From the NCBI RefSeq assembly GCF_019203965.1, contig NZ_CP076448.1:3277282-3341281 (forward strand): a stretch of 64,000 nt of DNA, written 5' to 3'. Made by a program: the position numbers and the translations under genes. The stretch is from Elioraea tepida (GTDB taxonomy: Bacteria; Pseudomonadota; Alphaproteobacteria; Acetobacterales; Acetobacteraceae). Shown one piece after another: positions 38,283 through 58,456 of the stretch. How positions within the stretch are numbered: the stretch's first letter is position 1; each line of letters begins with the position of its first letter. The notes under the pieces were generated by a model. The model saw only the letters and a program-made list of their open reading frames with translations, had not been told where the DNA came from and did not search any database.

Positions 38283-39164
38283 ATGCCCATCCGCCGCAGC
38301 ATCGCCGGGCTCAACGGACCGGATGCGGTCGCGCGCGCGATGCGCGACGCCCAGTACATCGCCGACGACGGGCTCGCGACCGCCGCCTAACTTGCCCTTG
38401 CTCTCGGCAAGCCGCTCCTGCTCGAAGGCGCGCCAGGTGTGGGGAAGACGGAAGCGGCGAAGGCGCTCGCCTCCGTGCTCGGGAGGGAGCTGATCCGGCT
38501 GCAGTGCTACGAGGGGATTGACGCGTCCGCGGCTCTTTACGAATGGAAGTTCCCGCGCCAGATGCTCGCGATTCGCCAGGCGGGCGACGCGTACGTGAAC
38601 CTCTACGCTGACGAGTATCCGATCGCCCGCCCGCTTCTTCTCGCGCTTCAGGAGCCGCGGCAGAGGCTTCTCCTGTTCGACGAGATCGACAGGGCCGACC
38701 GCGAGTTCGAGGCCTTCCTGCTCGAATTCCTCTCCGACTTCACGATCTCGATTCCCGAGCGCGGGACCATCCGCGCCGCCGAGCCGCCCGTGGTGGTGCT
38801 GACCTCGAACCGGACGCGCGAGCTCCACGAGGCGTTGCGCTGGCGCTGCGTGTACCCCTGGATCGACTACACGGATCCGGCGCTCGAGACCGAGATCGTG
38901 ATGATGCGGGCGTCCACAGTCGCGCGCGCGACGGCCGAGCGCGTGGTCGCCGCCGTCAATCGGCTGCGTGCCGAGCCGCTCGCGAAGCCCCCCGGCGTGG
39001 CCGAGACTGTCGAGTGGGCGGAGGCCGCCACACTTCTTGCCGCCCAAGGGACACCTTGGCCGCGCGCCTTCGCCCGCGCGATCGGCGTGGCGCTGAAGGA
39101 TCAGGAGCACCTCTCCTTCCTCGCGTCACGGCTCGATGCCCTGATCACCGAGGCCGTCGCATGA
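38283..39164 (+). pseudogene. coxD: CoxD-like MoxR AAA+ ATPase with in-frame TAA at 38388-38390
   Basis: MPIRRSIAGLNGPDAVARAMRDAQYIADDGLATAA[TAA]LALALGKPLLLEGAPGVGKTEAAKALA... Walker A is intact downstream. The stop replaces the conserved Tyr of the A(A/L)YLAL motif. Confidence 0.7.
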
Positions 39165-40263: not shown

Positions 40264-41138
40264 CGGTCGATGCGCATTTCCACATCTGGCGCCGTGACGA
40301 CCTTCCTTGGCTGTCGGGGCCGATGCAGCCGAGGATCTTCGGCCCCTACGAGCCGAACCGGCGCGACTACCTGATCAAGGAATATCTGCTCGACATCGCG
40401 GGGCAGGGAGTCGAGGCGGCGGTCTGCATCCAGGCGAACTGGCCGGCCGGAAGGGCCGAGGAGGAGGTCGCCTGGGTCTCCTCGGAGGCGGAGCGAACGG
40501 GCTGGCCGCAGGCCATCGTCGGCTCTGGCGATTTGACGCGCGAGGGGGCACGTGACGCCGTGGCTTCGCTCGCCAGAAACCGCCGTCTGCGCGGCATACG
40601 CCAGCAGCTGAATTGGCACGAGAACCCGCTCTACCGTTTCGCCGCCCGCCCCGATCTCTGCCTCGATCCGGTGCTGCAGCGGAACGTTGCCTCTCTCGGC
40701 GAGCGCGGACTCGTGTTCGAGCTGCAGGTGTTCACGCCGCAGATGGAGGGTGCTGCCGCGCTCGCCGATGCCGCGCCTCTGACCACGCTCGTGCTGCAGC
40801 ATGCGGGCATGCCTGAGGGTCTCTCTGAGGAGGGCATGGATCGCTAGCGCCGCGGCATGGCGGAGCTTGCGCGGCGGCCGAACGTGGTTGCGAAGCTCTC
40901 GGGCCTCGGCACCTTCCTGCGCCGGCTCGATCGTGACCATGTGGCTCGGATCACGGCGGAGACGGTCAAGCTGTTCGGGCCGGAGCGCTGCCTGTTCGGC
41001 TCGAACTTCCCGATCGAGAAGCTCTGGACGGACTATGCGGCGCTCATCGCCGCGCATCGTGACGCAGCGCGGCCGCTCGGTGATGGCGCGATGCGCGCGA
41101 TCTTCAACGACACGGCACGCCGGGTCTACCGGCTCTGA
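40260..41138 (+). pseudogene. Amidohydrolase-2 family metal-dependent hydrolase with in-frame TAG at 40845-40847
   Basis: MTVDAHFHIW...LSEEGMDR[TAG]RRGMAELARRPNVVAKLSGLGT... The stop sits at a Trp-expected position (TGG to TAG). ATGA overlap with coxE. Confidence 0.65.
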
Positions 41139-41151
41139 GGGAGAGGGTGTC

Positions 41152-42000
41152 ATGCCGCTCGAGATCAAGATCCTCGACTATGGCGACATCGAGCTCGAGT
41201 CGAGCTTCCTCGTGCTCGGTCGCGACTGCGGGCGAACGCGGCGCGTCTGCACCTACGGGTTCCTGATCCTCGGCGGGCAGTATCCGATCGTCGTCGACGC
41301 CAGGTATCGCGACAACGCGATCATGGAAACCCTTGGCATGCGCGGGCTGCAGTCGCACGAAAACATGCTCGAGCGGCAACTCGCCAAGCACGGGGTGAAG
41401 GTGGGCGACGTGCGCTACGTCGTGCATACCCACCTGCATATCGATCACGCCGGCAAGGACGATCATTTCCCAATGAACACGACGGTGGTCGACAACCGCC
41501 GGGAGATGGAGTGCTCCGTCTCCGGCCTGATGCACCCGCAATACCCGAAGCCCGACATCATGCACCTGATCGAGCGCCTGCACACGCCACAGGCGCTGCG
41601 CTTCGAGGACCTCGAGCTCTCAGGGCCGATCGAGCTGATCCCCGGCGTGGTGCTCGAGGCGGCGAACGCGCACACCGAGGGGTCGATGAATGTCCATGTC
41701 GAGACCGCCGAGGGGCGCGCGACCATCTGCGGCGACGTGATCGACGACATCCAGGAACAGATCGTCGAACCGTTCCGGCTTCATTTCGCTCAGGAGATCC
41801 AGGTCACCGGCAACCATGCGGGCTCGAAGCGCGCCGAGAAGGCGGCGGTGAAGAAGCTGCTCAGCACGTCCACCTTCCTCCTGCCGGCGCAGGATCGTCC
41901 GGCGAAGGTCGTCCAGGGGCAGATCGTCGGCCGGCTCGGGATGGAGGTGCCGGGGCCAATCACCCAGACTGTCTGTCGCCGCGACTGGTTCCCCGCGTGA
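41152..42000 (+). CDS. MBL-fold metallo-hydrolase (N-acyl-homoserine-lactonase-like)
   Basis: HTHLHIDHAG (HxHxDH) motif. 282 aa, apparently intact. Confidence 0.7.
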   Translation: MPLEIKILDYGDIELESSFLVLGRDCGRTRRVCTYGFLILGGQYPIVVDARYRDNAIMETLGMRGLQSHENMLERQLAKHGVKVGDVRYVVHTHLHIDHAGKDDHFPMNTTVVDNRREMECSVSGLMHPQYPKPDIMHLIERLHTPQALRFEDLELSGPIELIPGVVLEAANAHTEGSMNVHVETAEGRATICGDVIDDIQEQIVEPFRLHFAQEIQVTGNHAGSKRAEKAAVKKLLSTSTFLLPAQDRPAKVVQGQIVGRLGMEVPGPITQTVCRRDWFPA

Positions 42001-42016
42001 TCGGAGGCGAGAGGCG

Positions 42017-43570
42017 ATGGCACGTACGGCACTCGACGCTGGATTCGAGCGGCTAATCGATCCCCATGCCCCGGTGCGGCAGATCTGCAGCGGCTTCATC
42101 TTCACCGAAGGCCCGGTTTGGTATCCGCAGGAACAGGCGCTCTACTTCTCCGACATGCCGGGAGATGTGCGGCGGCGGTGGGACCGCCACGGCGTGCGCG
42201 AAGTGATGCGGCCCTCGAACAAAGCGAACGGGCTCACTTTCGACGCCGCCCTGAACCTGCTCGCCTGCGAGCATGCGACGAGTGCGGTGGCGCGCTTTCG
42301 GCCCGACGGAAGGCAGGAGGTTCTGGCGACGCATTTCGAGGGCCGGGAGCTGAACAGGCCGAACGACCTCTGCGTGCACTCCTCGGGGGCGATCTACTTC
42401 ACCGATCCGTGGTACGGCAGGATGCCACATTACGGCGTAGAACGGCCGCGGCAGCTCGGCTTCCAGGGCGTCTATCGGCTTGCCCCGAACCACATCCCCG
42501 GCGCCGAGCCGCAGCTTCTGGTCGAGCGCTATCTGTTCACGCAGCCGAACGGGCTCTGCTTCTCGCCCTGCGAGCGTCTTCCTTACGTGAACGACACGGA
42601 GCAGGCGAACATCCGTGTGTTCGAGGTGGCCGAGGACTGATCGCTCCGGAATGGACGGGTCTTCGCCTCCGGCATTCGCGAGAGCCTGAACCCGGGCGTT
42701 CCGGACGGGATGAAATGTGACGCGGAGGGCAATGTCTGGGTCACGGGCCCCGGAGGGCTATGGGTGTTCCGGCCTGACGGGAAACATATCGGCCGCGTGT
42801 CCATTCCCGAACCGGCGGCGAACCTCGCCTGGGGCGGCGAAGACTGGAGGACGCTGTTCGTGTGCGCCTCCACCTCGATCTATGCGGTCGAGACGAGGGT
42901 GGGGCCGCGCAACGAGCCGTTCATGCGCGCGGCCGACTCGGCGCGTGCGCCGCGCGCGTCCGAGTCGTTGCGTCTCGACGCGCGGCGCTGCGCTCTGATC
43001 ATCCAGGACATGCAGAACGACGTGGTGATGGAGGGCGGCGCCTTCGCCTCCACAGGCTCCGCCCAGCATTGCCGCGAGCAGAACGCGATCGCCAACATCG
43101 CCCGCCTTGCGGAACGGTGCCGCGCCTTCGGCGTTCCGGTGATCCATGTCTGGTTCGTCGTCCCGCCAGGCGGCAAGGGCATGACGCTGAACGCGCCGCT
43201 GTTCGAGGGGGTGGTGGATGCCAACGCGATGGTGCGCGGCACCTGGGGCGCGGCGCCCGTACCCGGGCTCGAGCCGAGGCCGGGTGACCACGTCGTCGAG
43301 AAAAACCGCATGTCGGCCTGGGAAGGCACGATGCTCGAGACGATCCTCAAGGCGGAAGGCCGCGACGTGATCATCGAGACGGGTGCCTGGACGAACATGT
43401 CGATCGAGCACACGGCGCGCACAGGGGCCGACAAGGGCTATGTTATGGTGATCCCGGAGGATGCCTGCTCGACGATGAACGCCGATTGGCACCGTGCCTC
43501 GATCAACTATGCGATGCAGAGTGTCGCGCTTGTGACGACCACGGATGCCTCGATCGCGGCTCTGGGCTGA
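42017..43570 (+). pseudogene. SMP-30/gluconolactonase/LRE-like domain fused in frame to an isochorismatase-family hydrolase; in-frame TGA at 42638-42640
   Basis: The SMP-30 part (FTEGPVWYP...CVHSSGAIYFTDPWYG...VAED[TGA]SLRNGRVFASG...PDGMKCDAEGNVWVTGPGGLWVF) runs without a stop into an isochorismatase part (ALIIQDMQNDVV...VIIETGAWTNMSIEHTAR...VIPEDAC). The TGA sits at a Gly-expected position. Confidence 0.6.
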
Positions 43571-43713
43571 GCGGCTGGGCGCGATCAGCCGATCCTCGCC
43601 GTGCCGTGTGGTGGGGCAAGGCAGCGATCATGCCGAGGACGGGCGGGTAAGCGGCAGGGCCGTGGCCCCCGCCCTCACCCCGGGTCGGCAGTTCGGGAGG
43701 GGAGAGGGGAGCG

Positions 43714-45336
43714 CTACCGGCACGCCACGGCCTCGCCGAGCGCGCGGCAGCGCGTTTCGCCCTCCGGCACGAGCTGCGCAAGAGCCGGCACCGCCTCGGG
43801 CAGGATCAGACGCAGTTCGCCAGAAGCAAAGGGCGCCGCGGCGCGCGCCGCGTCGTCGCACACGGGCGGGGTCAGCCAGCGCGCGACATGCATGGTGCTG
43901 ACCGGCAGGCCCCGCTCGGAGGCAAGAAGCAGCGCCTCATGCGCCTGCATGAAGTTCCGGGTGGAACCGGCCGGGATGCAGGGCCAGGAGGGCAGAAGCG
44001 TCAACCGCTCCGCCTCCGCCATCAGTGCGCGAAGCGCGGGCGCATCGAGCGTCCATCCGGGGCGGGCCGAGGCCCAGGCGGCAAGGTCTCGGCGGATCGG
44101 GGTCGCATCGACGATCTGGACCACGCCGACGAGGAGGGCGAGCCAGGGTCCCGCTCTGCCCGCCCCAGCGAGCAGCGCGAACGTCCCGACGAGAAGAGCA
44201 TAGAGCACCGGCCAGAAGAACCGCCCCGAGGCGCGGAACTGCTCGAGGAAGGCAGGAGCGGCGCCGAGATCAAGGACGATCCGCTCGCCCACACCGACGC
44301 GGTGGCTCACTGCAAGCGCGGTGAGCCCGGCGAGCACGAGCGCAAGCCCGGCATGACGTCGGAGCGTCGTCCGAGCCGTTCCAGGCCGAAGCAGCACGAC
44401 GAGCACGAGCCCCGCGACGAGCCCGGCGCCGAGCCATGCATAGCCCTCCCAGCCGCCGAACCCAGTCGCGTCGATCTCCCCGCCGATGCTGCCGCCAAGC
44501 AGCAGAGAGCGATAGGGCCAGAGCGGGGAGAGCAGATTGAGCGCGTAGTTGCCGTAGCCTCCATCCCCCACGGCGCCGAAATAGCCGAGCACCGCCATGG
44601 CGGCCGCGACGGCGAGGCCTGAGGCGATGAGCCCCGCTCCGGCCGCGACCCAGCCCCTATCTCCGCGCAGGAGCAGCGTCAGGGGCACCGCTCCAAGGAC
44701 GGCAAGCGCCATCGCCGCGAGATAGGGGTGGACCAGCAGGGTCGACACCATCGTGAAGGCTGCGAAGGCCCAAAGCAGCGTCGTCTGCCTCCGCACCAGC
44801 CTGAGATAGAGGCCGAGCGCGCCCAGGATCGTGGCGTGACCGGTCAGGGCCGCATGGCCGTAGCGCGCGAGCCAGGCAGGGGTGCCAAGGGCGGCGAGGA
44901 CAATGCCGAGCGCAGGCAGAAGGCGCCGTTCGCCCGTTCCCCGAAGCGCCCAGACGGCGGCCGCCGGCTGGGCAATGGTCATCAGCGCATACCAGAGGCC
45001 GATGCCGTGGAACCCAGGTGGCAGGAGGGGTCTGGCGAGCTTGAGCAGCAGAGCGAGCAGCGGGATGGCATCGGCGAAGGCGATGTTCACGCCTTCGGGA
45101 GCGTTCATGTTTCGTGCAAGAAGTGGCGGCCAGTGCCATGAGTCGGCGATGAAATACCGCTGCGCAATCGCATGCTGCGCTGCATCACCGACAAGAGCCG
45201 TGTCGCCACCGGCGGCGGGGAACAGGAAGTCGGCCGGGAAGACGAGGAGCGCCTGGCAGAGTCCGACCAGCGCGGCGGCGAGATAAGCCGAAAGGCGTGG
45301 AAAATGCTGGTCCGCTTCTCTGTGCTGGGTTGCCAC
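43714..45336 (-). CDS. Large polytopic membrane protein (putative polysaccharide-locus membrane protein, possibly DUF6311/GT-C-like); paralog of 54109-55845
   Basis: About 12 predicted TM segments. Conserved N-terminal block YFIADSWHWPPLLARNMNAPEGVNIAFADAIPLLALLLKL, matched in the paralog (FRRDAWHIPPGLNPNYGLELSSSIFYADTIPLIALPLK). GTG start at 45336 proposed; the track ORF extends to 45537. Confidence 0.55.
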   Translation of the reverse strand: MATQHREADQHFPRLSAYLAAALVGLCQALLVFPADFLFPAAGGDTALVGDAAQHAIAQRYFIADSWHWPPLLARNMNAPEGVNIAFADAIPLLALLLKLARPLLPPGFHGIGLWYALMTIAQPAAAVWALRGTGERRLLPALGIVLAALGTPAWLARYGHAALTGHATILGALGLYLRLVRRQTTLLWAFAAFTMVSTLLVHPYLAAMALAVLGAVPLTLLLRGDRGWVAAGAGLIASGLAVAAAMAVLGYFGAVGDGGYGNYALNLLSPLWPYRSLLLGGSIGGEIDATGFGGWEGYAWLGAGLVAGLVLVVLLRPGTARTTLRRHAGLALVLAGLTALAVSHRVGVGERIVLDLGAAPAFLEQFRASGRFFWPVLYALLVGTFALLAGAGRAGPWLALLVGVVQIVDATPIRRDLAAWASARPGWTLDAPALRALMAEAERLTLLPSWPCIPAGSTRNFMQAHEALLLASERGLPVSTMHVARWLTPPVCDDAARAAAPFASGELRLILPEAVPALAQLVPEGETRCRALGEAVACR

Positions 45337-45588
45337 CCGCGTCTGGTGCCGTTCCTGCTGTCGCGCGTCAACGCAGGCGGCATCCGCGCCGGCAGGGCGT
45401 GTTCGCTCCTCGCGCGGCGGTTGCTGCAGCGCCACAATCCCGCCCCAACCACGTCGTGAAGCCGCCCACGAGGACGGAGAGACTGCGCGCGCTGGTGATC
45501 CGAACCACTCCTGGGTGCCGCGGCGAGACCCTCGCAACGGCCGCGTGCGCCCGCAAGGCAGGGACAGCGGGTCCAGCGGGAAAAGAGG

Positions 45589-46287
45589 ATGGTCATGTCC
45601 GGTCTTCGGGCCTACCCGTCGTTGCGGGCTCAGTTCTTCGTCGGCCGTTCGGGCGGGCAGCGCGTGGCTGCCGTGCTGCGCCCTGTGGTGAAGCGCGCGA
45701 TCGATCTCGTCGGCGCTGCCTCGCTTCTTGTCCTGTTGGCGGTGCCGATGCTGGTCATCGCCGCACTCGTGCGCGCCGATGGCGGCCCGGCCCTGTTCTC
45801 ACATACCCGTGTCGGGCGCGGCGGGCGGCCGTTCAACTGCCTCAAGTTCCGCACCATGGTCGTGGACAGCGAAGCGCAGCTTGCTGCGCTTATCGCCTCC
45901 GACGAGGCGGCGCGGGCCGAGTGGGCGGCCACGCGCAAGCTCAAGAACGACCCGCGGGTGACCCGGATCGGCCGCTTCCTCCGCGCGAGCTCGCTCGACG
46001 AGCTGCCGCAGCTGATCAACGTGCTGAAGGGCGAGATGAGCCTGGTCGGGCCCCGTCCGGTCCAGGCGTCCGAGCTTGCGACCTACTACGGCGCAGCGGC
46101 CGAGCATTACCAGCTCGTCCGCCCCGGCATCACCGGGCCGTGGCAGATCAGCGGCCGAAGCGAGACGAGCTATGACCGACGCGTTGCGCTCGATGTCGCC
46201 TACGCGACGCAGCCCTCGCTGCTCGAAGACCTGCGCATCCTGCTCCTGACCCCCGCGGCCGTGCTCTCTCGCCGCGGCGCCTACTGA
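45589..46287 (+). CDS. Undecaprenyl-phosphate sugar phosphotransferase (ExoY/WbaP C-terminal domain family)
   Basis: Bac_transf motifs: PRPVGRGGRPFNCLKFRTM, DELPQLINVLKGEMSLVGPRP, RPGITGPWQ. AAGAGG RBS before the ATG. Confidence 0.8.
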   Translation: MVMSGLRAYPSLRAQFFVGRSGGQRVAAVLRPVVKRAIDLVGAASLLVLLAVPMLVIAALVRADGGPALFSHTRVGRGGRPFNCLKFRTMVVDSEAQLAALIASDEAARAEWAATRKLKNDPRVTRIGRFLRASSLDELPQLINVLKGEMSLVGPRPVQASELATYYGAAAEHYQLVRPGITGPWQISGRSETSYDRRVALDVAYATQPSLLEDLRILLLTPAAVLSRRGAY

Positions 46288-46339
46288 GCGGTCATCGACG
46301 CCGCGTCTCGCCGGCTGCATCGCCTCGGCGGCGGGGCTA

Positions 46340-47863
46340 TTGGTCCGGTCGATGACCGAAGACGTCGCCTCCCGCGCGGGCGGCAGGCGGCTGGTCGCGG
46401 GTGTGGCGTGGAACGCGCTCGGCCGCGGCCTACCTCTTCTGCTTGCCCTCGCACTCACCCCGGTGCTGGTCGGCCAGCTCGGGCTCGAACGCTGGGGCCT
46501 GTTCACGCTCGCGCTAGCGCTCGTCGGCGTGTTCGGGATGCTCGATCTTGGGGTGGGCCCGGCGCTGACGCGGGCGCTTTCGGAGCGGATCGGGTCAGGC
46601 CGGCGCGAGGGGGAGGGCGAACTCGTCGCCTCGGCTCTCGCCGCTCTTGTCGGTTCGAGCGCCCTCTTCGCGGGCCTTGCCTGGGTCGGGATCCGCCCGC
46701 TGGTCGAACGGCTTCTGAACGTGCCTCCCGGCCTCGTCGAGGAGGCTGTCGGGGCAATGCGCGTGCTCGTCGCGGCGGCGCCGCTCGTCGTTGCCAACGC
46801 CGCTCTCTGGGGCGTGCTCGCCGCGCACCAGCGTTTCCGGGTGGCGAACCTCGTCACCATCCCAGTCTCCGTCTTCTATTATCTCGGGCCGGTTCTTGTC
46901 CTGTTGGTGTGGAACTCGCTCATCGGCGCGATGCTCGCTCTCGTCGGCTGCCGGCTCGCCAACACCGTGTCCTATGCGCTTCTAGTGCGGCCCCTGTTGC
47001 CCGGCCTCTCCTGGCGCTCGGTCCGGCTCGCGCCTGTGGTGCCGCTTCTTCGCTTCGGCGGATGGATGACCTTCGCCTCCGCCGTGACCCAGGCGCTTCT
47101 CTATGCCGACCGCTTCCTGATCGGCGCGCTTCTGACGCTCGAGGCCGTCGCCTTCTACGCCACCCCGCTTGATCTCGTGATCCGGTTTTGGATCCTGCCC
47201 GTCGCGGTCGCACAGGCTCTTCTGCCCGCGCTCGCCTCGTCCTTCCGCCTCCTCCCGACCGAGACGGTGGCGCTGGTGCGCAAGGCGACGCTGCTGATCG
47301 CGGCGATCGTCCTGCCGGCGGCGGTGGTGCTCGTTGCGCTCGCGAAGCCCGGGCTTCGGCTCTGGCTCGGGGCGGAGTTCGCCGAGGGCGGGGCGGCGGT
47401 GCTGCGGATCCTCGGCGTCGGCATCCTGTTCAACTGTGTCGCCTTCGCTCCGGGAAGCCTGATCGAGGCGGTCGGCAGGCCAGACCTCACGGCGCGGTTT
47501 GCGCTCGCCCAGGCCCTCGTGTTCGTTCCGCTTTCGGCTCTGCTCCTGCTGGCGATCGGGATCGAGGGGGCTGCGATCGCCTGGAGCCTTCGCGCGGCGG
47601 CCGATTGCGCGGGCCGTGCGGTTCTGGCCGCAAGCGTCTATCCGGCGGCGTCGTCGACGCTGCGCGCGCTCGCGGCACCCGTCGGGGCGGCAGGAGCCGG
47701 CCTCGCCGCGGCGTCTTCCATGCCGTCTGTCGGCGCCGCCCTTGGGGTCGGCATGGCCTGCCTTGGGCTGTTCGCCGCGCTCGGCTGGCGTACGCTCGCG
47801 GCGGACGAGCGCGCCGCCTTTGCCGCTGCGCTGCGCTCCCCGGGAACGCTTCTGCGACGATGA
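46340..47863 (+). CDS. wzx: Polysaccharide flippase (Wzx/MOP superfamily)
   Basis: 507 aa, about 12-14 TM segments, Polysacc_synt-like. TTG start as in the track. ATGA overlap with the downstream GT. Confidence 0.7.
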   Translation: MVRSMTEDVASRAGGRRLVAGVAWNALGRGLPLLLALALTPVLVGQLGLERWGLFTLALALVGVFGMLDLGVGPALTRALSERIGSGRREGEGELVASALAALVGSSALFAGLAWVGIRPLVERLLNVPPGLVEEAVGAMRVLVAAAPLVVANAALWGVLAAHQRFRVANLVTIPVSVFYYLGPVLVLLVWNSLIGAMLALVGCRLANTVSYALLVRPLLPGLSWRSVRLAPVVPLLRFGGWMTFASAVTQALLYADRFLIGALLTLEAVAFYATPLDLVIRFWILPVAVAQALLPALASSFRLLPTETVALVRKATLLIAAIVLPAAVVLVALAKPGLRLWLGAEFAEGGAAVLRILGVGILFNCVAFAPGSLIEAVGRPDLTARFALAQALVFVPLSALLLLAIGIEGAAIAWSLRAAADCAGRAVLAASVYPAASSTLRALAAPVGAAGAGLAAASSMPSVGAALGVGMACLGLFAALGWRTLAADERAAFAAALRSPGTLLRR

Positions 47864-48936
47864 GGGAGATCGTCGTCAACGGCCGATTCCTCACCCAGGC
47901 GCTCACCGGCGTGCAGCGCTATGCGATCGAGATCACCCGAGCGCTCGCCACCCTCGTGGCCGAGGGAAGGGCACCGCCGATCCGCCTTGTCGCGCCCCCT
48001 GGCACCGTGGCGCCATGGCTCGCCCCGATCCCGGTCGAGACCACGGGGTCACGCCACGGCCAGGTGTGGGAGCAGCTCGACCTGCCGCGGGCCGCGCGCG
48101 GGCGGGTTCTGGTCAGCCTTGGCAATACCGGGCCTCTTCTTGCGGGTGCGAAACAGCTCGTCGTCATCCACGACGCCGGCGCCTTCGACACGCCGGAGAG
48201 CTACTCCTTCGCCTTCCGGATGTGGTATCGGCTGCTGCAGAGTCTGCTCGCCCGGCGCAAGGCGCGGATCGTCACCGTCTCCGCCTTCTCGCGCGGGCGT
48301 ATCGCCGCCGCCCTGGCTGTGCCGGAGGCCTTGATCGCCGTGACCTACGAGGGGGGCGAGCACGCGCTTCGAGAGCCGGCCGACCCTTCCATACTCTCCC
48401 GCCATGGCCTCGAGCCGCAGCGCTTCGTGCTCGCGGTCGGCACGCGGGCGGCGCACAAGAACCTCGGGGCGCTCGCAGCGGCGGCGCGGCTTCTCGCCGC
48501 GCGCGGGATCACGCTCGCCGCCGCCGGCGCGGCCGACCCAGCCGTGTTCCGCCCCGCAGGCGACGTTGCCGGCCCCGGCGCCATCGCCCTCGGCCGGGTG
48601 AGCGATGCCGAGCTTCGCGCGCTCTACGAGGCAGCGCTCTGCCTCGTCTTCCCCTCCCGCTACGAGGGCTTCGGCCTTCCGCCGCTCGAGGCGATGGCGA
48701 GCGGCTGCCCCGTCATCGCCGCGCGCGCCGGCGCGGTGCCGGAAGTGTGCGGCGACGCGGCTCTGTGGTTCGACCCGGCCATCCCCGAGAGCCTGACGGC
48801 GGCGCTCGAACGGCTGCTCGACGAGCCCGGTCTTGCCCCCGCCCTGCGTGCGGCCGGGAAGGAGCGGGCGGCGCGCTTCACCTGGCGGGCAGCCGCCGAG
48901 AGGCTGCTCGAGGCCGTGGCGGAGGTGGGCGCATGA
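47860..48936 (+). CDS. Glycosyltransferase family 4 (GT-B)
   Basis: Start MREIVVNGRFL. C-terminal EGFGLPPLEAMASGCPVIA motif (E-x7-E region) typical of GT4. Confidence 0.8.
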   Translation: MREIVVNGRFLTQALTGVQRYAIEITRALATLVAEGRAPPIRLVAPPGTVAPWLAPIPVETTGSRHGQVWEQLDLPRAARGRVLVSLGNTGPLLAGAKQLVVIHDAGAFDTPESYSFAFRMWYRLLQSLLARRKARIVTVSAFSRGRIAAALAVPEALIAVTYEGGEHALREPADPSILSRHGLEPQRFVLAVGTRAAHKNLGALAAAARLLAARGITLAAAGAADPAVFRPAGDVAGPGAIALGRVSDAELRALYEAALCLVFPSRYEGFGLPPLEAMASGCPVIAARAGAVPEVCGDAALWFDPAIPESLTAALERLLDEPGLAPALRAAGKERAARFTWRAAAERLLEAVAEVGA

Positions 48937-50057
48937 AGGTCGCGATCGTGCACGAGTGGCTCGACACCTATGCCGGTTCCGAGCGCGTGCTCGAGCAGCT
49001 CCTGCTCGCCTGGCCCGAGGCCGATCTCTTCGCGGTCTGCGACTTCCTTCCCGAGGCGGAACGCGGCTTTCTCGGCGGGCGGAGGCCCCGCACCACCTTC
49101 ATCCAGCGCCTGCCGTTCGCGCGCACCCAGTTTCGCAAATACCTATCCTTGATGCCGCTCGCGGTCGAGCAGATCGATCTTTCCGGCTACGACCTCGTTC
49201 TCTCCTCCTCGCACGCGGTCGCCAAGGGGGTTCTCACCGGGCCGGGGCAGCTGCATGTGAGCTACATCCACTCGCCGATGCGCTACGCGTGGGACCTTCA
49301 GCACCAGTATCTCCGCGAGAGCGGCAGCGAGCGGGGGCTCAAGGGAGCGATCGCTCGGTGGATGCTGCACCGGCTTCGGATCTGGGACCGTGCCTCCGCC
49401 GCCGGCGTCGACGTGCTGGTGGCGAACTCGAGCTACATCGCGGAGCGGATCCGCAAGGTGTGGCGGCGCGAGAGCGTGGTGATCCACCCCCCCGTGGCGG
49501 TGCACCGCTTCACGCTTCGACGCGACAAGCAGGACTACTACCTCGTCGCCTCGCGCATGGTTCCCTACAAGCGGGTCGAGCTTGTCACGGCGGCGTTCCG
49601 GCGCATGCCCGGCCGCAAGCTCGTCGTGATCGGCGACGGGCCGAACATGAAGGCGGTCCGCGATGCGGCCGGAGGAGCGGCCAACATCACATTCCTGGGG
49701 CGTGTCTCGCAACCGGAACTGATCGACCGGATGCAGGGCGCGCGCGCCGCGCTGCACGCCGCCGAGGAGGATTTCGGCATCGCCATCGTCGAGGCGCAGG
49801 CCTGCGGCACGCCGATGATCGCCTATGGCCGCGGCGGGGCGCTCGACATCGTGCGCGCGCCCCCGGCGAACCAGCCGACCGGAGTGTTCTTCGCCGAACA
49901 GACACCCGAGAGCATCATCGCCGCCGTCGAGCAGTTCGAGGGGCTGGCTGAGGCGATCACGCCTGAGGCCTGCCGCGCGAACGCGATGCGCTTCGGCGAG
50001 GCGGTGTTCCGCGATGCGATGAAGGCGCTTGTTGCTCGCGAGCTGGGAGCGCGATGA
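48933..50057 (+). CDS. Glycosyltransferase family 4 (GT-B)
   Basis: Start MKVAIVHEWL (ATGA overlap). EDFGIAIVEAQACGTPMIAY motif. Confidence 0.8.
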   Translation: MKVAIVHEWLDTYAGSERVLEQLLLAWPEADLFAVCDFLPEAERGFLGGRRPRTTFIQRLPFARTQFRKYLSLMPLAVEQIDLSGYDLVLSSSHAVAKGVLTGPGQLHVSYIHSPMRYAWDLQHQYLRESGSERGLKGAIARWMLHRLRIWDRASAAGVDVLVANSSYIAERIRKVWRRESVVIHPPVAVHRFTLRRDKQDYYLVASRMVPYKRVELVTAAFRRMPGRKLVVIGDGPNMKAVRDAAGGAANITFLGRVSQPELIDRMQGARAALHAAEEDFGIAIVEAQACGTPMIAYGRGGALDIVRAPPANQPTGVFFAEQTPESIIAAVEQFEGLAEAITPEACRANAMRFGEAVFRDAMKALVARELGAR

Positions 50058-50929
50058 CCGCGTTCAGCCTGATCGTCGCGACCAGGGGGCGAAGCGCCGA
50101 GCTCGGCCAGATGCTCGAGAGCGTGGTCGCCCAGGCGCCGGTCGAAGCCGAGGTGATCGTCGTCGACCAGAACGACGATGATCGTGTCGCATCCGTGATC
50201 GCCCCTTTTGCAGAACGTCTGCCGCTCATCCACATCCGTTCTGCGATCGCGAACGCCAACCACGCCCGCAATCTCGGCCTCAGCCATGCGCGCGCGCCGC
50301 TCGTTCTGTTCCCCGACGATGACTGCGTTCTTCCCGCGGGCGTGCTCGCCCGCGCCGCGAGCGCCTTCGCCGCCGACCCGGCACTCGGCGTGCTTACCGG
50401 CCCCGCAGCCTCACCCGAGGGAAGGCTCGGATCCGGGCGCTGGCGCGCCCAAAGCGGGCCGATCACGCTCGCCAATCTCTGGACCAGCGTCATCGAGTTC
50501 AATCTCTTCCTACGCCGCGAGGTCGCGCTCGCTCTGGGCGGGTTCGACGAGGCGCTGGGGCCCGGAACGCCGTTCGGCTCGGCCGAGGGCAATGATCTCG
50601 TGGCGCGGGCGATCCGGCGCGGCATCGCCGCCCGCTACGACCATGACCTCCGGATCGTGCATCCGGACAAGCGGATGACCGACGTCGCCGTCGAGCGTGC
50701 GGCCCTCTACGGCGCCGGGCTCGGCGTGGTGCTGCGCCGCCACGCTCGCGTTGGAACGATCCTGTCCTTCGTGATCCGCCCTCTGGGCGGCCTCGCGCTC
50801 GGCCTTGCGCGGGGGAACCTGCTGGCCGCGCGCTATCACGCCGAGACCCTGCGCGGCCGGTTTCGCGGGCTGATGGCGGGAGAGGTGGCGCGTCGGGCCC
50901 CGGCCCAGGCGCTCGAGGCGGTGGCATGA
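50054..50929 (+). CDS. Glycosyltransferase family 2
   Basis: SLIVATRGR... plus a DDD-type motif (VLFPDDDCVL). ATGA overlap. Confidence 0.75.
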   Translation: MTAFSLIVATRGRSAELGQMLESVVAQAPVEAEVIVVDQNDDDRVASVIAPFAERLPLIHIRSAIANANHARNLGLSHARAPLVLFPDDDCVLPAGVLARAASAFAADPALGVLTGPAASPEGRLGSGRWRAQSGPITLANLWTSVIEFNLFLRREVALALGGFDEALGPGTPFGSAEGNDLVARAIRRGIAARYDHDLRIVHPDKRMTDVAVERAALYGAGLGVVLRRHARVGTILSFVIRPLGGLALGLARGNLLAARYHAETLRGRFRGLMAGEVARRAPAQALEAVA

Positions 50930-51801
50930 CCCTCTCGATCGCCATCGGCATCGCCACGCGTGGCCGGCCCGCTATCCTCGCCGAGACGATCGCCGAGCTC
51001 TCACGCCAGACTCGCGCGCCCGAGGCGATCCTCGTCTGCCATGTGGATGAGGAGGATGTCGGCGATCTGCCGGCGCGCCGGCCCGACATTCGTTTCCTCA
51101 AGGCAGAGGCCGGGCTGCCGAAACAGCGCAACGCCATCCTCGAGGCAGCGCGCGAGGATGTGGTGCTGTTCCTCGACGACGACTTCCTCGCCGCCCCGTC
51201 CTACCTCGAGGTGTTGGGGCGCGTGCTCGAGGCGCGACCGGACTGCGTCGTCGCGACCGGGACGGTGATCGCCGACGGCGCCAAGGGGCCCGGGATCTCG
51301 GTCGAGGAGGGGCGGGCGATCCTCGCCGCCGACATCCCGCCACCCGATCTGCTCGCCGCCGCGCCGCACTTCAACGGCTATGGTTGCAACATGGCGTTCC
51401 GGATGGCGCCGGTGCGCGCGCACCGGATCCGCGTCGACGAAGCGCTGCCGCTCTATGCGTGGTACGAGGACATCGATGTGACGCGACGTCTTGCTGCCTA
51501 TGGAACGATCCTGCGGCTTGCCGGCGCCCGCGGTGTGCATCTCGGCGCGAAGGCGGCGCGCACGCCTGGGCTTCGCCTCGGCTACAGCCAGGTCGCGAAC
51601 CCGATCTATCTCGCGCGGAAGGGGAGCTTTCCCTGGAGCCATGCGATCCCCTCGGCCGCACGCCACTGCGCGATCAACCTCGTGCGCTCGATCGCGCCCG
51701 AGCCTCATGTCGACCGCTGGGGGCGGTTCCGCGGCAACATGCTCGCGCTGTGGGACCTCCTGCGCGGCCGGGCGCACCCGGGCCGTATCCTCTCGCTCTG
51801 A
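50926..51801 (+). CDS. Glycosyltransferase family 2
   Basis: SIAIGIATRGRP... plus FLDDDF motif. ATGA overlap with the previous GT2. Confidence 0.75.
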   Translation: MTLSIAIGIATRGRPAILAETIAELSRQTRAPEAILVCHVDEEDVGDLPARRPDIRFLKAEAGLPKQRNAILEAAREDVVLFLDDDFLAAPSYLEVLGRVLEARPDCVVATGTVIADGAKGPGISVEEGRAILAADIPPPDLLAAAPHFNGYGCNMAFRMAPVRAHRIRVDEALPLYAWYEDIDVTRRLAAYGTILRLAGARGVHLGAKAARTPGLRLGYSQVANPIYLARKGSFPWSHAIPSAARHCAINLVRSIAPEPHVDRWGRFRGNMLALWDLLRGRAHPGRILSL

Positions 51802-51806
51802 TCGCC

Positions 51807-52604
51807 TCAGGGAGCGGGGAAGGGCGCGTCTGTCCGCCCCATCATCCAGTAGGCGACGAGCCCGATCCACTCGCGCAACGCTCCCTCGACCTGGGCGAGG
51901 CGCTCGGGGAAGGGAGCGTCGTAGAGGGCTGCGAAGCTGCGTCCCGTCCTGTAGTTGACGGGCCAGGGGACGACGGGCCACCCGGCGGCGCGGAACACGC
52001 CGACGGCGCGCGGCATCTTGCTTGCCGAGGTGACAAGCAGCCACGTCTCGCCCGGTTTCGGATTGATGAGCTCCTTGGTCAGCACAGCGTTCTGGTGCGT
52101 GTTTCGGCTCTTGTCCTCGTAAGTCACGCGCGCCTGATCGAGGCCCATCGCGGTCCAGAGCGCGCGAGCGACATCCGCCTCGGTCAGCCCCCCATGCACG
52201 AGCGATCCCTGGCCGCCGGTGAAGACGATCCGCGCCTGCGGGTAGCGCCGGGCGAGGGCGATCGCCTCCGTCATCCGCTCGGCCGCGCCGTTGAGAGCGG
52301 GGATCCCGCGCGCCTCGGTCAGGTTCTGATCCACCGCGCCGCCGAGCACGATCACGCCATCGACGTGCGTGGGTGGCTCGACGGGGCGGGAAAACCGTTC
52401 CTCAAGCGGGATGAGCAGGAGCGGGGCCACGGGGGTTGCGAGCACCACCACGAAGAAGCCGAGGCCGAAGGCGAGCGGCCAGCGGCCCCAGCGCCGCCCG
52501 CGCCACCACGCGACGAGGCCGACAAGGCACAGCAGAAGCGCGAAGGTGCCGGGGCGCAGCACGAACCAGAGCAGCTTCGAGAGCACATAGCTCAGCGTCG
52601 TCAT
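51807..52604 (-). CDS. DUF218 (YdcF/ElyC-like) domain protein
   Basis: Minus-strand ORF starting at ATG 52604: MTTLSYVLSKLLWFVLRPG..., N-terminal TM, then a VLGG...TGG DUF218 core. ATGA overlap with the upstream GT-C gene. Confidence 0.7.
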   Translation of the reverse strand: MTTLSYVLSKLLWFVLRPGTFALLLCLVGLVAWWRGRRWGRWPLAFGLGFFVVVLATPVAPLLLIPLEERFSRPVEPPTHVDGVIVLGGAVDQNLTEARGIPALNGAAERMTEAIALARRYPQARIVFTGGQGSLVHGGLTEADVARALWTAMGLDQARVTYEDKSRNTHQNAVLTKELINPKPGETWLLVTSASKMPRAVGVFRAAGWPVVPWPVNYRTGRSFAALYDAPFPERLAQVEGALREWIGLVAYWMMGRTDAPFPAP

Positions 52605-54112
52605 CGCGGATCCCTGAGACGGTAGATCTCGACCGGCCCGTTCGCCTCGAGAACACGTGCGGCAAACTCGTAGTGGCGCCCGAGCGTCGCCTCGATCGCG
52701 GCCCGGGCAGGCGGGCGCATGGCCGTCCACCAGCCGCGATCGACCACGATCGCCGCAGGGCGCGCGGCAAGCACGCGGTCGAGCTCCGCATCGGCGTCGA
52801 TGCCGGTCACCCCGCTGTACCAACCGGCGAGGTGTTGGGGAAAGGCGAAGCGGGTCGGCACCGCCATGCCCGAAAGCACATAGACCACCGGATGGTAGTT
52901 GGCGATGTAGACGGTGGAGCCTTCCGGGACAATCTCGCGCAGTGACTGCGCGACCAGCCGGATAGGGTCGGCGCGCCGGAAGCCTGGGCCGGTCTCGATC
53001 CGGCGCGCGGCATCGCCGGTCCAGGTGTCGGCGGCGATGAAGCCGAGCGCGGCGGCAAGCAGGAGGCCCGGACGCGCCGGCAGGATTCGCCGCGCCAGAG
53101 CCCATGCGCCGGCGGCGGCAAGCAGCGACAGCGGCGGCTGCCAGATCAGGAAGTAGTGATTGAAGAACTGCCCGGGAGCGGCGATGGCGAGCGTGGTGGC
53201 CACGAGCCAGCCGAGGCCGAACCCCGCGACGCGCCGCACCTCGCCGCCGGGCAGCGCCGTGGCGGCGGCGAGCACGATCGGCCAGATGAGGAACAGGGTA
53301 ACAGCCACCAGCATCCAGGCGCCGTCACGGAACGTGATCGCGGCGCCGAGATAGCGGAAGGGGGCGACGAACCAGACATCGAGGAAGATGTCGAAGGCGC
53401 CCTGCGCCGCGTAGGCCAACCCCACGAGCAGGGTCGGCGCGCCGCAGGCGGCGGTATAGAGCGCCGCGTGTCGGAGCAGGGCAGGCGGGGCGAGCAGTCG
53501 TTTCGTCAGAGCAGGTCCGACCATCACCGCGAACGCGAAGCAGCCCTCGAAGAACGCAACCGACTTGATCACGAGGGCGATGCCGACGAGCAGGCCCGCA
53601 AGCGCGATCCGCACGGGCCTTGGGGGCTGCAGATCGTCGAGCGTACGCACCCCCTCGCGGGCCGCGAGCGCAAGCGCGGCGACGACGAAGGGCGAGAACA
53701 GCACCTCCGTGTTGGTGGCGAGGCCGCCGAAATTCGTTGTCAGAGCGATCGAGAGCAGGCCAGCGGCATAGGCCGGCACGGCGGGCAGCCCGAGCACGCG
53801 AGCAAGCGCGAAGAGCGCGGTTCCGGCCACTGCCACGGCAACTGCGCCGAGCAGCCGCACGGCGAAGATCACGGGAAGGGGCAGCATCAGCGCGAGCGCG
53901 ACGAGCGCCGGCGCGCCGATCGGGTGCATGTCCCATACACCGATCAGCGGCCAGGTGCCGGCAAGCCAGTCCCGCGCCTGGAGGATGTAGAGCCCCTCGT
54001 CGGTGTCGATCACCGCCGGAACGAAGGAGAGCGAGCGCAGAGCAAGCGAGGCGGCGAGCATTGAGAGAGCGAGGCCGACTGGGCTCGTGAGAGCGGGAAC
54101 GAGCGGGCTCAC
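52601..54112 (-). CDS. GT-C fold glycosyltransferase (ArnT/PMT_2-like)
   Basis: Polytopic N-terminal region with a DTDEGLYI-type motif (VIDTDEGLYILQARDWLAG) and a soluble C-terminal domain. Proposed GTG start at 54112, overlapping the stop of the upstream gene (GTGA). ATG MLAAS is the alternative. Confidence 0.6.
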   Translation of the reverse strand: MSPLVPALTSPVGLALSMLAASLALRSLSFVPAVIDTDEGLYILQARDWLAGTWPLIGVWDMHPIGAPALVALALMLPLPVIFAVRLLGAVAVAVAGTALFALARVLGLPAVPAYAAGLLSIALTTNFGGLATNTEVLFSPFVVAALALAAREGVRTLDDLQPPRPVRIALAGLLVGIALVIKSVAFFEGCFAFAVMVGPALTKRLLAPPALLRHAALYTAACGAPTLLVGLAYAAQGAFDIFLDVWFVAPFRYLGAAITFRDGAWMLVAVTLFLIWPIVLAAATALPGGEVRRVAGFGLGWLVATTLAIAAPGQFFNHYFLIWQPPLSLLAAAGAWALARRILPARPGLLLAAALGFIAADTWTGDAARRIETGPGFRRADPIRLVAQSLREIVPEGSTVYIANYHPVVYVLSGMAVPTRFAFPQHLAGWYSGVTGIDADAELDRVLAARPAAIVVDRGWWTAMRPPARAAIEATLGRHYEFAARVLEANGPVEIYRLRDPR

Positions 54113-55845
54113 CGAACGCCCTCGGTGATGGTTCCCTCCGGCAGGTCCTCGAAGGGCGGGGCGAGCCGGCGCAGATGGGAGGGGATCGGGCGGTCGCCCC
54201 AGCCCGGGAGAAGAACGACGAGCCCGTCGATGAGCAGCATCGGGTCGCGCTCCCGGTCGCGTCCGAAATCGGCGCGCTTGAGCGTGTCGCGGTCGCGCAG
54301 GACATAGACCGTGCCGGGCTCGTGACGGCCGGAGAAGAGCTGCGCGGCGATCTTCTCTCGGAGCGCGGCGATCGCGCCCGGGTCGATCCGCGCCAGATAG
54401 ACGGCATCGGTCGTCATGCCGTGACGTATGGCGAAGCGCGCGGTGGATTCCCAGTGAAGCCCGCGGTCGGCCGCCGGCACCGCACGGATCCGCGTGTAGG
54501 CCTTGCCGATCTCGTCCCAGAACGGATCGGGCAGGCGCTCGGGCTGGATCCGCGGCTCCTTGATCACGAGCGATTCGTAGTGGCGGATCGAGGGCAAAAG
54601 ATCGACGAGCTGAACGGCGGCGAGTGCGGCAAAGAGAAGGGCGGCGAGCCGGGCACGGTTCGGCCCGAGCGCGCGCAGCGTCACGATCGCCGCCGAAGCG
54701 AGCAGGGCATAGGCGAGCGGCCAGGCGAAGCGGGTCGAGGCGCGCAGGATTCCGGCAAGCCTCAGCATCCAGGGCGGCGGCTCGAACAGGGTGATCCGCA
54801 CGCCGGCGATGGAGGGCATGTGCGTCATCGCGAACAGGATCAAGGCGATCAGAACGACCACAAGCGGCCAGCTGCGCATGAGCGCGGCACGGATCCCGAG
54901 GTCGCGCCGGAGACACACGGTCACGAGCCCGGCGGCGAGCAGCAGGATCCCCCCGAGGCCAAGATAGTCGCTGCCCGACTCGCCGTGGCGCAGGTCCGGG
55001 ATCGGCGGCAGGATCGATCCCCACAGGGTGCTGTCGAACCAGGCGAGCACGTTGAACCCGAGATCTCCGTAGCCCCAGGCCTCGAGACCGGCGCGCAGAA
55101 CGAAGAACCCGGCGGCCCAGAGCCCGGCCGCGCCGAGCGCGGGCACGAGCACGGCCTCGGCAGCACGCCCCAGGGCGGGGGCGGCGATGGTCCGACGCAG
55201 CCAGTCAGCTCCCCACAAGGCGCCGACCATGACGAGCAGGTAGGAATGCACGAGGCTCGTGGCGGAGACGAGCAAGGCCCAGGCCAGAGGGCGCCGCGCG
55301 CCGCGCCCCTCCGTGAAGCAGAGCAGGAGGGCTGCGAGTACCGTCCACTGCCCCGCGAGCGCGAGGTGGCCCGCCATGCGCATCAGCATCATCGGCTGCA
55401 GGGCGAACAGCGCCGAGGCACCGAGCAGCGCGAGCGTTCCGGCCGGGGTGATGCCGATGCCGGACAGCGCGGCGAGTCTGAGCCCGAGCACCGCCTGCGC
55501 CATGCCGCAGAAGAGGAGCCACATGCCCCAATACTGTTCGACTGTGACGAGGCTCCGGATCGCCTTCAGCGGGAGCGCGATGAGCGGGATGGTGTCGGCG
55601 TAGAAGATCGAACTCGACAGCTCGAGACCGTAGTTGGGGTTCAGCCCGGGCGGGATGTGCCAGGCGTCACGGCGGAACCAGCTCCAGCCGAGCCAGTACT
55701 GCACCGGGTCGGGCCCCATGGGGCCTGCGAGCATCCATCCCGTGGCGGTCGGCGACAGGACTCCCTCCCAGAACTCCCACGGTGTGGGGCCGAACGACAG
55801 CACCACCACCGCCGCACCGATAGCGGCCGCGGCGAGATGAGCCAT
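54109..55845 (-). CDS. Large polytopic membrane protein, paralog of 43714-45336
   Basis: Start proposed at MAHLAAAAIGAAVVVLSF. Shares the W-H-x-PP / ADxIPLxALxLK N-terminal block with the paralog. The track ORF extends to 56037. Confidence 0.55.
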   Translation of the reverse strand: MAHLAAAAIGAAVVVLSFGPTPWEFWEGVLSPTATGWMLAGPMGPDPVQYWLGWSWFRRDAWHIPPGLNPNYGLELSSSIFYADTIPLIALPLKAIRSLVTVEQYWGMWLLFCGMAQAVLGLRLAALSGIGITPAGTLALLGASALFALQPMMLMRMAGHLALAGQWTVLAALLLCFTEGRGARRPLAWALLVSATSLVHSYLLVMVGALWGADWLRRTIAAPALGRAAEAVLVPALGAAGLWAAGFFVLRAGLEAWGYGDLGFNVLAWFDSTLWGSILPPIPDLRHGESGSDYLGLGGILLLAAGLVTVCLRRDLGIRAALMRSWPLVVVLIALILFAMTHMPSIAGVRITLFEPPPWMLRLAGILRASTRFAWPLAYALLASAAIVTLRALGPNRARLAALLFAALAAVQLVDLLPSIRHYESLVIKEPRIQPERLPDPFWDEIGKAYTRIRAVPAADRGLHWESTARFAIRHGMTTDAVYLARIDPGAIAALREKIAAQLFSGRHEPGTVYVLRDRDTLKRADFGRDRERDPMLLIDGLVVLLPGWGDRPIPSHLRRLAPPFEDLPEGTITEGVR

Positions 55846-57652: not shown

Positions 57653-58456
57653 ATGGCGCCAATCCTGGAGGCAACGCGCGTCTCGCTGCGCTTCGGCGGC
57701 GTTCGTGCGCTCACGGATGTCTCCTTCGCCGTCCGACCGGGCGAATTGTTTTCGATCATCGGCCCGAACGGAGCGGGCAAGACCTCGATGGTCAATTGCA
57801 TCTCGGGCCGCTACCGCCCGACGGAAGGCGCGATCCGCTTCGAAGGGCGAGACATCACGGGCCTAAGCCCGAACGCCCGCGCTGCCCTCGGCATCGGCCG
57901 CACCTTCTAGAACGTCGCGCTGTTCGGGCACATGAGCGTGCTCGACAACATCCTTGTCGGCCGCCATCACCTGCTTCGCCACGGCTTCCTGACGGGGATG
58001 CTCTATTGGGTCGGGGGCGCGCAGCGTGGGGAACTGCGCCACCGGCGCGAGGTCGAAGAGATCATCGACTTCCTCGAAATCCAGCACGTTCGAAAGGCAC
58101 AGGCGGGAACGCTGAGCTACGGGCTGCGCAAGCGCGTCGAGCTCGCGCGCGCGATCGCGCTGAAGCCGAAACTGATCCTGCTCGACGAGCCGATGGCAGG
58201 CATGAATCTCGAGGAGAAGGAGGACATGGCCCGCTTCATCGTCGACCTCAACGAGGAATGGGGGATGACGGTGATCATGATCGAACACGACATGGGGGTG
58301 GTAATGGACATCTCCCACCGCGTCATGGTGCTCGACTTCGGCAAGAAGATCGCGGAAGGGCGCCCCGAGGAGGTTCTCGCAAACGAGCATGTGAAGCGCG
58401 CCTATCTCGGCGAGGTGGACGAGCTCCTGGTCGACGAGGCCGACCCTGTGACATGA
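57653..58456 (+). pseudogene. livG: ABC transporter ATP-binding protein (LivG-like) with in-frame TAG at 57907-57909
   Basis: GPNGAGKTS...LGIGRTF[TAG]NVALFGHMSVLDNI... (Gln-expected position, CAG to TAG). Signature LSYGLRKRVELARAI and Walker B LILLDEPMAGMN. A TTG at 57632 is an alternative start. Confidence 0.65.

Follow-up and report, generated by a model that had tools for sequence, protein, structure and literature searches.

A conserved ten-gene locus of Elioraea tepida that most likely joins Wzx-dependent glycan assembly to periplasmic GT-C glycosyltransferases of the DUF6311 family

Elioraea tepida is a thermophilic phototroph of the Acetobacteraceae group from Mushroom Spring, whose genome was sequenced by PacBio (PMC8781829). 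We analyzed a stretch of 64,000 nucleotides of its chromosome (contig NZ_CP076448.1, positions 3,277,282 to 3,341,281 of the forward strand; G+C content about 70%), which we call the window and to which all coordinates refer. At 43714-55845 the window holds a polysaccharide locus of ten genes, all intact and together spanning 12 kb. The locus is bracketed by two genes, G1 and G10, for large membrane proteins of the DUF6311 family, and the role of these two proteins is the subject of this study. Genes were called from third-position G+C and translation, and families were assigned with Pfam and NCBIfam. The locus comprises the following features.

43714-45336, minus strand: G1, polytopic protein of 540 amino acids (aa), DUF6311 (PF19830, E = 1.6e-13), predicted glycosyltransferase (GT) of the GT-C class A fold
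45337-45588: divergent intergenic region between G1 and the operon G2 to G7, presumed from the gene coordinates to hold the promoters
45589-46287, plus strand: G2, small phosphoglycosyltransferase (PGT) of 232 aa (Bac_transf, E = 4e-61)
46352-47863, plus strand: G3, Wzx-type flippase of the MOP superfamily, 503 aa (Polysacc_synt, E = 4e-14; Polysacc_synt_3; MatE)
47860-48936, plus strand: G4, GT4 glycosyltransferase of 358 aa (Glycos_transf_1, E = 3e-22)
48933-50057, plus strand: G5, GT4 glycosyltransferase of 374 aa (Glycos_transf_1, E = 7e-23; Glyco_transf_4)
50054-50929, plus strand: G6, GT2 glycosyltransferase of 291 aa (Glycos_transf_2, E = 5e-16; best NCBIfam matches MftF and EpsD)
50926-51801, plus strand: G7, GT2 glycosyltransferase of 291 aa (Glycos_transf_2, E = 5e-9; best NCBIfam matches HpsN and EpsD)
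51807-52604, minus strand: G8, ElyC-like DUF218 protein of 265 aa (E = 5e-30) with two predicted N-terminal transmembrane (TM) segments
52601-54112, minus strand: G9, putative ArnT/PMT_2-like GT-C class A enzyme of 503 aa (PMT_2, E = 3.3e-4)
54109-55845, minus strand: G10, polytopic protein of 578 aa, DUF6311 (E = 1.3e-35), predicted GT-C class A

The Pfam and NCBIfam matches agree for all ten genes with the families named in a preliminary description of this DNA. G2 aligns to the C-terminal catalytic half of the NCBIfam models WbaP and EPS_sugtrans (E = 3e-85 and 1e-78), and G3 has about 10 hydrophobic segments. Thus, the priming PGT and the Wzx of a Wzx/Wzy-dependent pathway are both present. 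Alternative starts exist for G3 (TTG at 46340) and for G10 (GTG at 55881, giving 590 aa). The preliminary description took all plus-strand genes to be coupled by ATGA overlaps. We find such 4-bp overlaps at G3/G4, G4/G5, G5/G6 and G6/G7, but G2 and G3 do not overlap and are separated by about 50-64 bp. On the minus strand the coupling is present as described, by a GTGA overlap at G10/G9 and an ATGA overlap at G9/G8. A scan of the locus for promoters and terminators gave nothing above background, and there is no sigma-70 consensus in 45337-45588. The region 37004-55336 is 99.5% identical to two metagenome contigs of the Joint Genome Institute (JGI), with two gaps in one contig and none in the other. 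Orthologs cover each of the ten genes over 97-100% of the alignment length, and the locus is thus intact. It had also been said to differ in this from damaged neighbors; possible signs of such damage are seen in part of the flanks, as truncated domain matches and one in-frame TGA (see below).

G1 and G10 score 51.5 and 124.1 bits against PF19830, and both thus exceed the Pfam gathering cut-off of 27 bits. The second domain of the family, DUF6311_C (PF25853), was assigned through the annotation of identical or near-identical clusters, which carry PF19830 together with PF25853 (100% identity to G10; 99% to G1, representative P0121), and not by scoring G1 and G10 themselves. In a BLASTP comparison the two proteins are 33% identical over 346 residues (E = 7e-12), and they are true paralogs. 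The N-terminal block WHxPP...ADxIPLxALxLK, which had been noticed in both sequences, is real and is conserved family-wide; its residues W62, P65, D84, P87 and K94 are retained in 139-149 of 150 DUF6311 representatives. The residues D46, D84, K94, R156, H160, R368, R372 and D415 are each retained in 141-149 of the 150. Such invariant acidic and basic residues are the usual pattern of GT-C enzymes, that is, a catalytic Asp and phosphate-binding basic residues. DUF6311 is a large family, and its profile matches 6,290 clusters at 50% identity (E <= 1e-3). About 60% of the best 150 representatives (P0244-P0390) reach some 700 aa and have at the C-terminus a further domain of about 150 aa, marked by the motif GW..E..G.W. 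G1 and G10 lack this possible carbohydrate-binding module, which matches DUF7024 in a few cases.

An AlphaFold2 model of G10, built with 54 homologs, has a mean predicted local distance difference test score (pLDDT) of 91.5 and a predicted template modeling score (pTM) of 0.91. It shows about 11 membrane helices, a first loop (19-105) that contains short helices, and an alpha/beta domain at the C-terminus (440-578). D46 and D84, both retained in 149 of the 150 representatives, sit in this long first loop between the helices 2-18 and 106-126. The other conserved residues fall into later loops of the model, whose sidedness we infer. The membrane core resembles solved GT-C class A enzymes, and the best structural matches include AftA, AftD and AftB; Foldseek returned the same set of structural neighbors. 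We therefore regard it as almost certain, on the strength of the model, that the DUF6311 paralogs have the GT-C class A fold. Their earlier placement among the GT-C-type enzymes is borne out by the model, and their assignment to DUF6311 by the PF19830 matches. At the sequence level the family stands apart. There is no hidden Markov model (HMM) or profile similarity between DUF6311 and PMT_2, YfhO or ArnT, and neither the DUF6311 profile nor G9 matched any chain of the PDB in a sequence search at E up to 10.

We then compared the locus with its relatives, namely 80 genome loci around genes of the G10 type and 78 metagenome loci around genes of the G1 type, onto which all ten window proteins were mapped. 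Linkage counts for the G1 type are restricted to loci with enough flanking sequence (50 for the PGT, 38 for the synthase introduced below). Single loci are denoted by L numbers and DUF6311 representatives by P numbers. In the group of Elioraea, Roseomonas, Falsiroseomonas and Caldovatus the common unit is G9 - G8 - (G7 to G2) <-> G1 - [GT2], and from Elioraea to Roseomonas and Caldovatus the proteins of the locus are 55-90% identical. In 47 of the 50 loci the G1-type gene and the PGT gene are arranged divergently. In 11 metagenome-assembled genomes (MAGs) of freshwater Roseomonas the G10 type also heads an operon of the order DUF6311-PGT-Wzx-GT4-GT4-GT2-GT2, and this operon directly adjoins lpxI-lpxA-lpxD (L030, 18559-21570). 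The adjacency may hint at a link to lipopolysaccharide (LPS). Because the whole locus is conserved across genera, a conserved envelope glycan is favored over a classical hypervariable O-antigen, and the earlier idea that an acceptor other than a classic O-antigen is glycosylated fits this conservation. Downstream of the synthase no further conserved gene was found in ten long loci, only cross-hits to other GTs. In Falsiroseomonas stagni a gene for a HemolysinCabind (RTX-repeat) protein, which could be secreted, adjoins the DUF218 end of the orthologous locus (L082, 1403-2197).

The GT2 gene that follows the G1-type gene in relatives encodes a protein of 337 aa with two C-terminal TM helices. 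It is similar to synthases of undecaprenyl phosphate (Und-P)-linked sugars (PgfS, E = 2e-82; ArnC, E = 7e-52) and is 75-95% identical across genera. This synthase gene adjoins the G1 type in convergent orientation in 28 of 38 loci. In 19 of the 80 genome loci it immediately precedes the G10-type gene and is translationally coupled to it, with a 4-bp overlap in L030, and in L063 it stands between a G1-type and a G10-type gene. Among more distant DUF6311 genes (29-40% identity) a GtrB-like GT2 gene is adjacent in about 8 of 14 long loci, in one of which (L155) a GtrA-like gene is found as well. Moreover, the partners can be fused. P0249 is a fusion of GT2 and DUF6311, and in P0276 and P0355 an N-terminal GtrA domain (GtrA_DPMS_TM) precedes DUF6311. 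Such fusions occur in only three of 150 DUF6311 representatives, of which ten long ones were surveyed with Pfam and the remainder with phmmer. The conserved Acetobacteraceae loci contain no GtrA-type gene; GtrA was seen only in L155 and in the fusions P0276 and P0355. Two other assignments were considered and rejected. The synthase is not a partner of G9 only, as the coupling persists without G9 (L030 clade, L101, L104, L108 and L120) and in the fusions. Nor are G6 or G7 Und-P-sugar synthases themselves, since neither matches ArnC, GtrB or PgfS of NCBIfam.

The GT-C class A fold, the variously arranged linkage to the synthase and the GT2 and GtrA fusions together form the signature of a periplasmic transferase that uses an Und-P-linked monosaccharide. 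The fusions in particular point to single-sugar transferases. We thus think it likely that the donor of the DUF6311 proteins is an Und-P-monosaccharide. The linkage to the operon of PGT, Wzx and four GTs is equally consistent and therefore suggests as acceptor the oligosaccharide that this operon would build on undecaprenyl diphosphate (Und-PP), or a later form of it; we give this acceptor an even chance. One could also imagine that G1 and G10 act like PMT/PgfM1 as O-glycosyltransferases of proteins, which transfer single sugars from Und-P-sugar onto periplasmic or membrane proteins independently of the G2-G7 oligosaccharide. The similarity of the partner synthase is indeed highest to streptococcal PgfS (10.1101/2024.05.05.592596), and solitary G10-type genes do occur in housekeeping contexts. 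However, the synthase reaches only 277 bits against the PgfS model, far under the cut-off of 500, and the paralogs have no MIR or other PMT-specific domain. Moreover, it would leave unexplained why both paralog types are tightly and repeatedly linked to the PGT-Wzx-GT operon. We consider this explanation very unlikely.

The preliminary description saw no Wzy, Wzz or export genes in the locus and proposed that the paralogs could act in a polymerase- or ligase-like manner. The first statement was confirmed by the Pfam and NCBIfam scans. Pfam assigned none of 30 open reading frames (ORFs) of the window to Wzy, WaaL, Wzz, Wza or Wzc; these 30 include the locus but not several other polytopic ORFs, and the polytopic ORFs outside the locus that were scanned encode an ABC (ATP-binding cassette) permease, CdsA and a protein of the major facilitator superfamily. 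The conserved flanks of the relatives do not contain any of these five proteins either. The second statement is not supported. G1, G9 and G10 show no match to Wzy_C, O-ag_pol_Wzy or EpsG even at E up to 0.1, and none in NCBIfam. In structure searches, Foldseek included, no WaaL, Wzy or SEDS protein such as RodA appeared among the matches of the G10 model. The matches support DUF6311 and the GT-C class A fold, and the partner in relatives, adjacent or fused, is a GtrB/ArnC/PgfS-like synthase or a GtrA domain. The DUF6311 paralogs are thus probably not the missing Wzy or ligase.

It could still be argued that one or both paralogs replace Wzy, WaaL or an oligosaccharyltransferase (OST), and either polymerize the Und-PP-oligosaccharide or transfer it en bloc to lipid A-core, to protein or to another acceptor, as PglB and STT3 do. 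The absence of the five proteins from the locus and its conserved neighborhood speaks for this, and so do the almost constant pairing (47 of 50 loci) of the G1 type and the PGT-Wzx-GT operon and the lack of an adjacent Und-P-sugar synthase in the lineage of the window. The gene set would also follow the logic of the N-glycosylation locus pgl of Campylobacter, where a small PGT, GT4s, GT2s, a flippase and a GT-C enzyme are combined. On the other hand, the paralogs have no WWDYG motif, no STT3 HMM match and no structural similarity to WaaL, Wzy or RodA. The coupling and fusion of the family to GtrB-like synthases and GtrA domains point to monophosphate-linked single-sugar donors, and G10-type genes are often alone, far from any Wzx module. 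We also know of no GT-C class A enzyme that polymerizes diphosphate-linked repeat units. A replacement of this kind is therefore in our opinion unlikely. Quite unlikely is also the more specific version in which the G1-type protein alone supplies the step after Wzx in a pathway that lacks Wzy, polymerizing the flipped Und-PP-oligosaccharide or transferring it en bloc to a conserved envelope acceptor, while G10 and G9 decorate it from Und-P-sugar. If true, G1-type proteins would represent a class of polymerases, ligases or oligosaccharyltransferases that is new for bacterial glycans, and the glycan would be a family-wide "common antigen" of the Acetobacteraceae.

The third candidate glycosyltransferase of this kind, G9, is 100% identical to Elioraea tepida KO353_16040. 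Its score against PMT_2 (21.3 bits) is under the cut-off of 26.1, and most of its homologs at 43-55% identity carry PF13231 and are named ArnT/GT39. The model of G9 (pLDDT 92.5) superposes best on ArnT (5f15, TM-score 0.67), and its first loop contains a DTDE motif (residues 36-39). G9 is thus predicted to be a GT-C class A enzyme closest to ArnT. Since a profile-profile comparison of DUF6311 with the G9/PMT_2 family gave no relationship (probability 0.2%), the three GT-Cs of the locus are related only at the level of the fold. Genes of the G10 type and the G9 type also occur as an adjacent pair with the rest of the locus not nearby (L023 and L058; Humitalea rosea and an Elioraea MAG), which suggests that the two form a sub-module of their own. 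G8 matches the ElyC model over its full length (E = 6.5e-30), with 104 bits being under the equivalog cut-off of 205. In E. coli ElyC restrains the synthesis of phosphoglyceride-linked enterobacterial common antigen (ECA), and an effect on Und-P allocation has been proposed (PMC8609368). By analogy, G8 might affect the use of Und-P-linked intermediates.

We suggest that the glycan is assembled in the following steps, the first three of which follow from family membership. G2 would load a sugar-1-phosphate onto undecaprenyl phosphate. The two GT4 and two GT2 enzymes G4 to G7 would lengthen it to an Und-PP-oligosaccharide of up to five sugars, which Wzx (G3) would flip to the periplasmic face. 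There the three GT-C class A enzymes, G1, G10 and the ArnT-like G9, would add sugars singly from Und-P-sugar. This donor would be made by the PgfS/ArnC/GtrB-like GT2, the gene of which would have moved outside the locus in the lineage of E. tepida, and the ElyC-like G8 may tune the use of the Und-P-linked intermediates. On balance we consider it probable that the DUF6311 paralogs are periplasmic transferases which decorate or extend a glycan from Und-P-monosaccharide donors and act together with Wzx-dependent assembly. A stronger form of this proposal is that the three GT-Cs work processively and build a longer periplasmic chain from one Und-P-sugar on the flipped Und-PP-oligosaccharide as primer, much as AftA/B/C/D and Emb build mycobacterial arabinan on a lipid-linked galactan. 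This would account for the presence of one synthase only (75-95% identity across genera) beside three distinct GT-C class A enzymes in the conserved unit, and would suit a locus that lacks Wzy and is conserved across genera like a "common antigen" and unlike a variable O-antigen. AftA, AftD and AftB among the top structural matches also fit. However, each of the three enzymes could just as well add one residue, in the manner of RgtA-D on the LPS of Rhizobium, and DUF6311_C is at most a putative carbohydrate-binding module. A processive synthesis hence appears improbable to us.

Several observations weigh against the proposed periplasmic transfer from Und-P-sugars onto the operon's product. Many G10-type genes are solitary and lie in unrelated housekeeping contexts, so the acceptor of the G10-type enzymes need not be the product of G2 to G7. 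The synteny evidence is not fully independent either, as related genomes contribute part of it. For E. tepida the donor synthase is assumed and not seen in the window: tblastn gave no PgfS-like gene in the 64 kb (nothing better than E = 0.14), a GtrA-like gene is absent as well, and the members of its own lineage (L085-L088 and L090; at least 72% identity) also have no adjacent synthase. The ranking of GT-C class A folds is uninformative on the donor, since in the fold comparison AftA is equaled by STT3 and PglB, whose donors are diphosphate-linked oligosaccharides. The family has no characterized member, and in a full-text literature search for DUF6311 and PF19830 no paper mentioned it. Finally, Wzy, WaaL, PglL and a PglB-like OST with a WWDYG motif, any of which might pass on the flipped Und-PP-oligosaccharide, are all missing from the conserved unit. 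This gap in the hand-over leaves room for one DUF6311 paralog to do the step. Other possibilities are that the hand-over enzyme is encoded elsewhere in the genome or that the glycan stays lipid-linked.

The genes flanking the locus are metabolic and unrelated to it, and for several of them the Pfam match covers only a portion of the domain. At 37653-42000 and 57932-60398 we found partial matches to MoCoBD_2 (161-278 of 283), VWA_CoxE (46-215 of 222), Amidohydro_2 (1-182 of 289), ABC_tran (80-137 of 137) and AMP-binding (286-384 of 384). These fit damaged neighbors, and the ORFs may be either true pseudogenes or effects of ORF calling. On the plus strand at 42017-43570 an in-frame TGA (42638-42640) breaks an SMP-30/gluconolactonase ORF, and an isochorismatase domain follows in the same frame. 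The independent Illumina metagenome contig L086 (no gaps and 54 mismatches over 14.4 kb) has this TGA as well, so that a PacBio error is excluded. Possible explanations are a real nonsense mutation, read-through or recoding. At 18485-20484 (plus strand) a VgrG-like type VI spike gene is apparently split into two overlapping ORFs, one with Phage_GPD and the other with Phage_base_V/Gp5_trimer_C. An envelope cluster of the order frr-uppS-cdsA-rseP-bamA-skp-lpxD-fabZ-lpxA-lpxI lies at 238-11525, about 32 kb from the locus; it was read from N-terminal translations and four Pfam hits, with Pfam confirming only cdsA and lpxI.

With its placement in GT-C class A by structure and its ties to GtrB/GtrA-type partners by neighborhood and fusion, DUF6311 now has a testable class of function. 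This is comparable to the recent founding of the CAZy family GT136. The locus would mark an envelope glycan that is conserved from Elioraea to Roseomonas and Caldovatus and made by a hybrid of Wzx assembly and multiple periplasmic GT-C steps. Since some members of Roseomonas are opportunistic pathogens or skin commensals, a conserved surface glycan could be of practical interest.

How does the locus compare with known systems? GtrC, ArnT, YfhO/PgfM1 and the mycobacterial Aft and Emb enzymes transfer sugars on the periplasmic side from Und-P-type monosaccharide donors. Pairs of an Und-P-sugar synthase and a GT-C enzyme are known as GtrB/PgtC2 and PgfS/PgfM1 (10.1101/2024.05.05.592596), and the pentofuranose system of GT136 has the three components synthase, flippase and GT-C (PMC11127046). 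With such Gtr-type systems (GtrA/GtrB/GtrC, ArnC/ArnT, CsbB/YfhO, PgfS/PgfM1 and GT136) the DUF6311 proteins share the polytopic GT-C class A architecture and the conserved Asp of the first outer loop. In relatives they also share the adjacent or translationally coupled GtrB/ArnC/PgfS-like GT2 and, in some cases, the fusion to GT2 or GtrA. A further shared feature is the position beside an operon for Wzx-dependent glycan assembly. Unlike the other Gtr-type GT-Cs, DUF6311 is a separate sequence family. The window further differs from these systems in that it has neither synthase nor GtrA and that three GT-Cs belong to one conserved locus. Judged from its genes, the locus would therefore work like a Gtr-type system without encoding a complete one.

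The Wzx/Wzy pathways of O-antigen, capsule and ECA have in common with the locus the priming PGT, the four cytoplasmic GTs, Wzx and the overlapping operon. The ElyC-like DUF218 protein is a further likeness to ECA, to which ElyC is linked in E. coli (PMC8609368). In contrast to these pathways, Wzy, Wzz/Wzc, Wza and WaaL are missing from the locus and its conserved flanks, and the locus is conserved across genera and not hypervariable. In addition, Wzy and WaaL have the class B fold, whereas the DUF6311 paralogs are modeled with the class A fold. From PglB, STT3 and AglB and from the pgl system of Campylobacter the DUF6311 proteins differ by the lack of WWDYG, of an STT3 HMM match and of sequence similarity. 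Besides, oligosaccharyltransferases need no Und-P-monosaccharide synthase, and DUF6311 is coupled to one in relatives. To AftA, AftB, AftD and EmbA/B/C as well as to RgtA-D there is no sequence relationship. The locus is thus most likely a case in which periplasmic GT-C glycosylation is joined to Wzx-dependent assembly, by the uncharacterized and widespread DUF6311 family.

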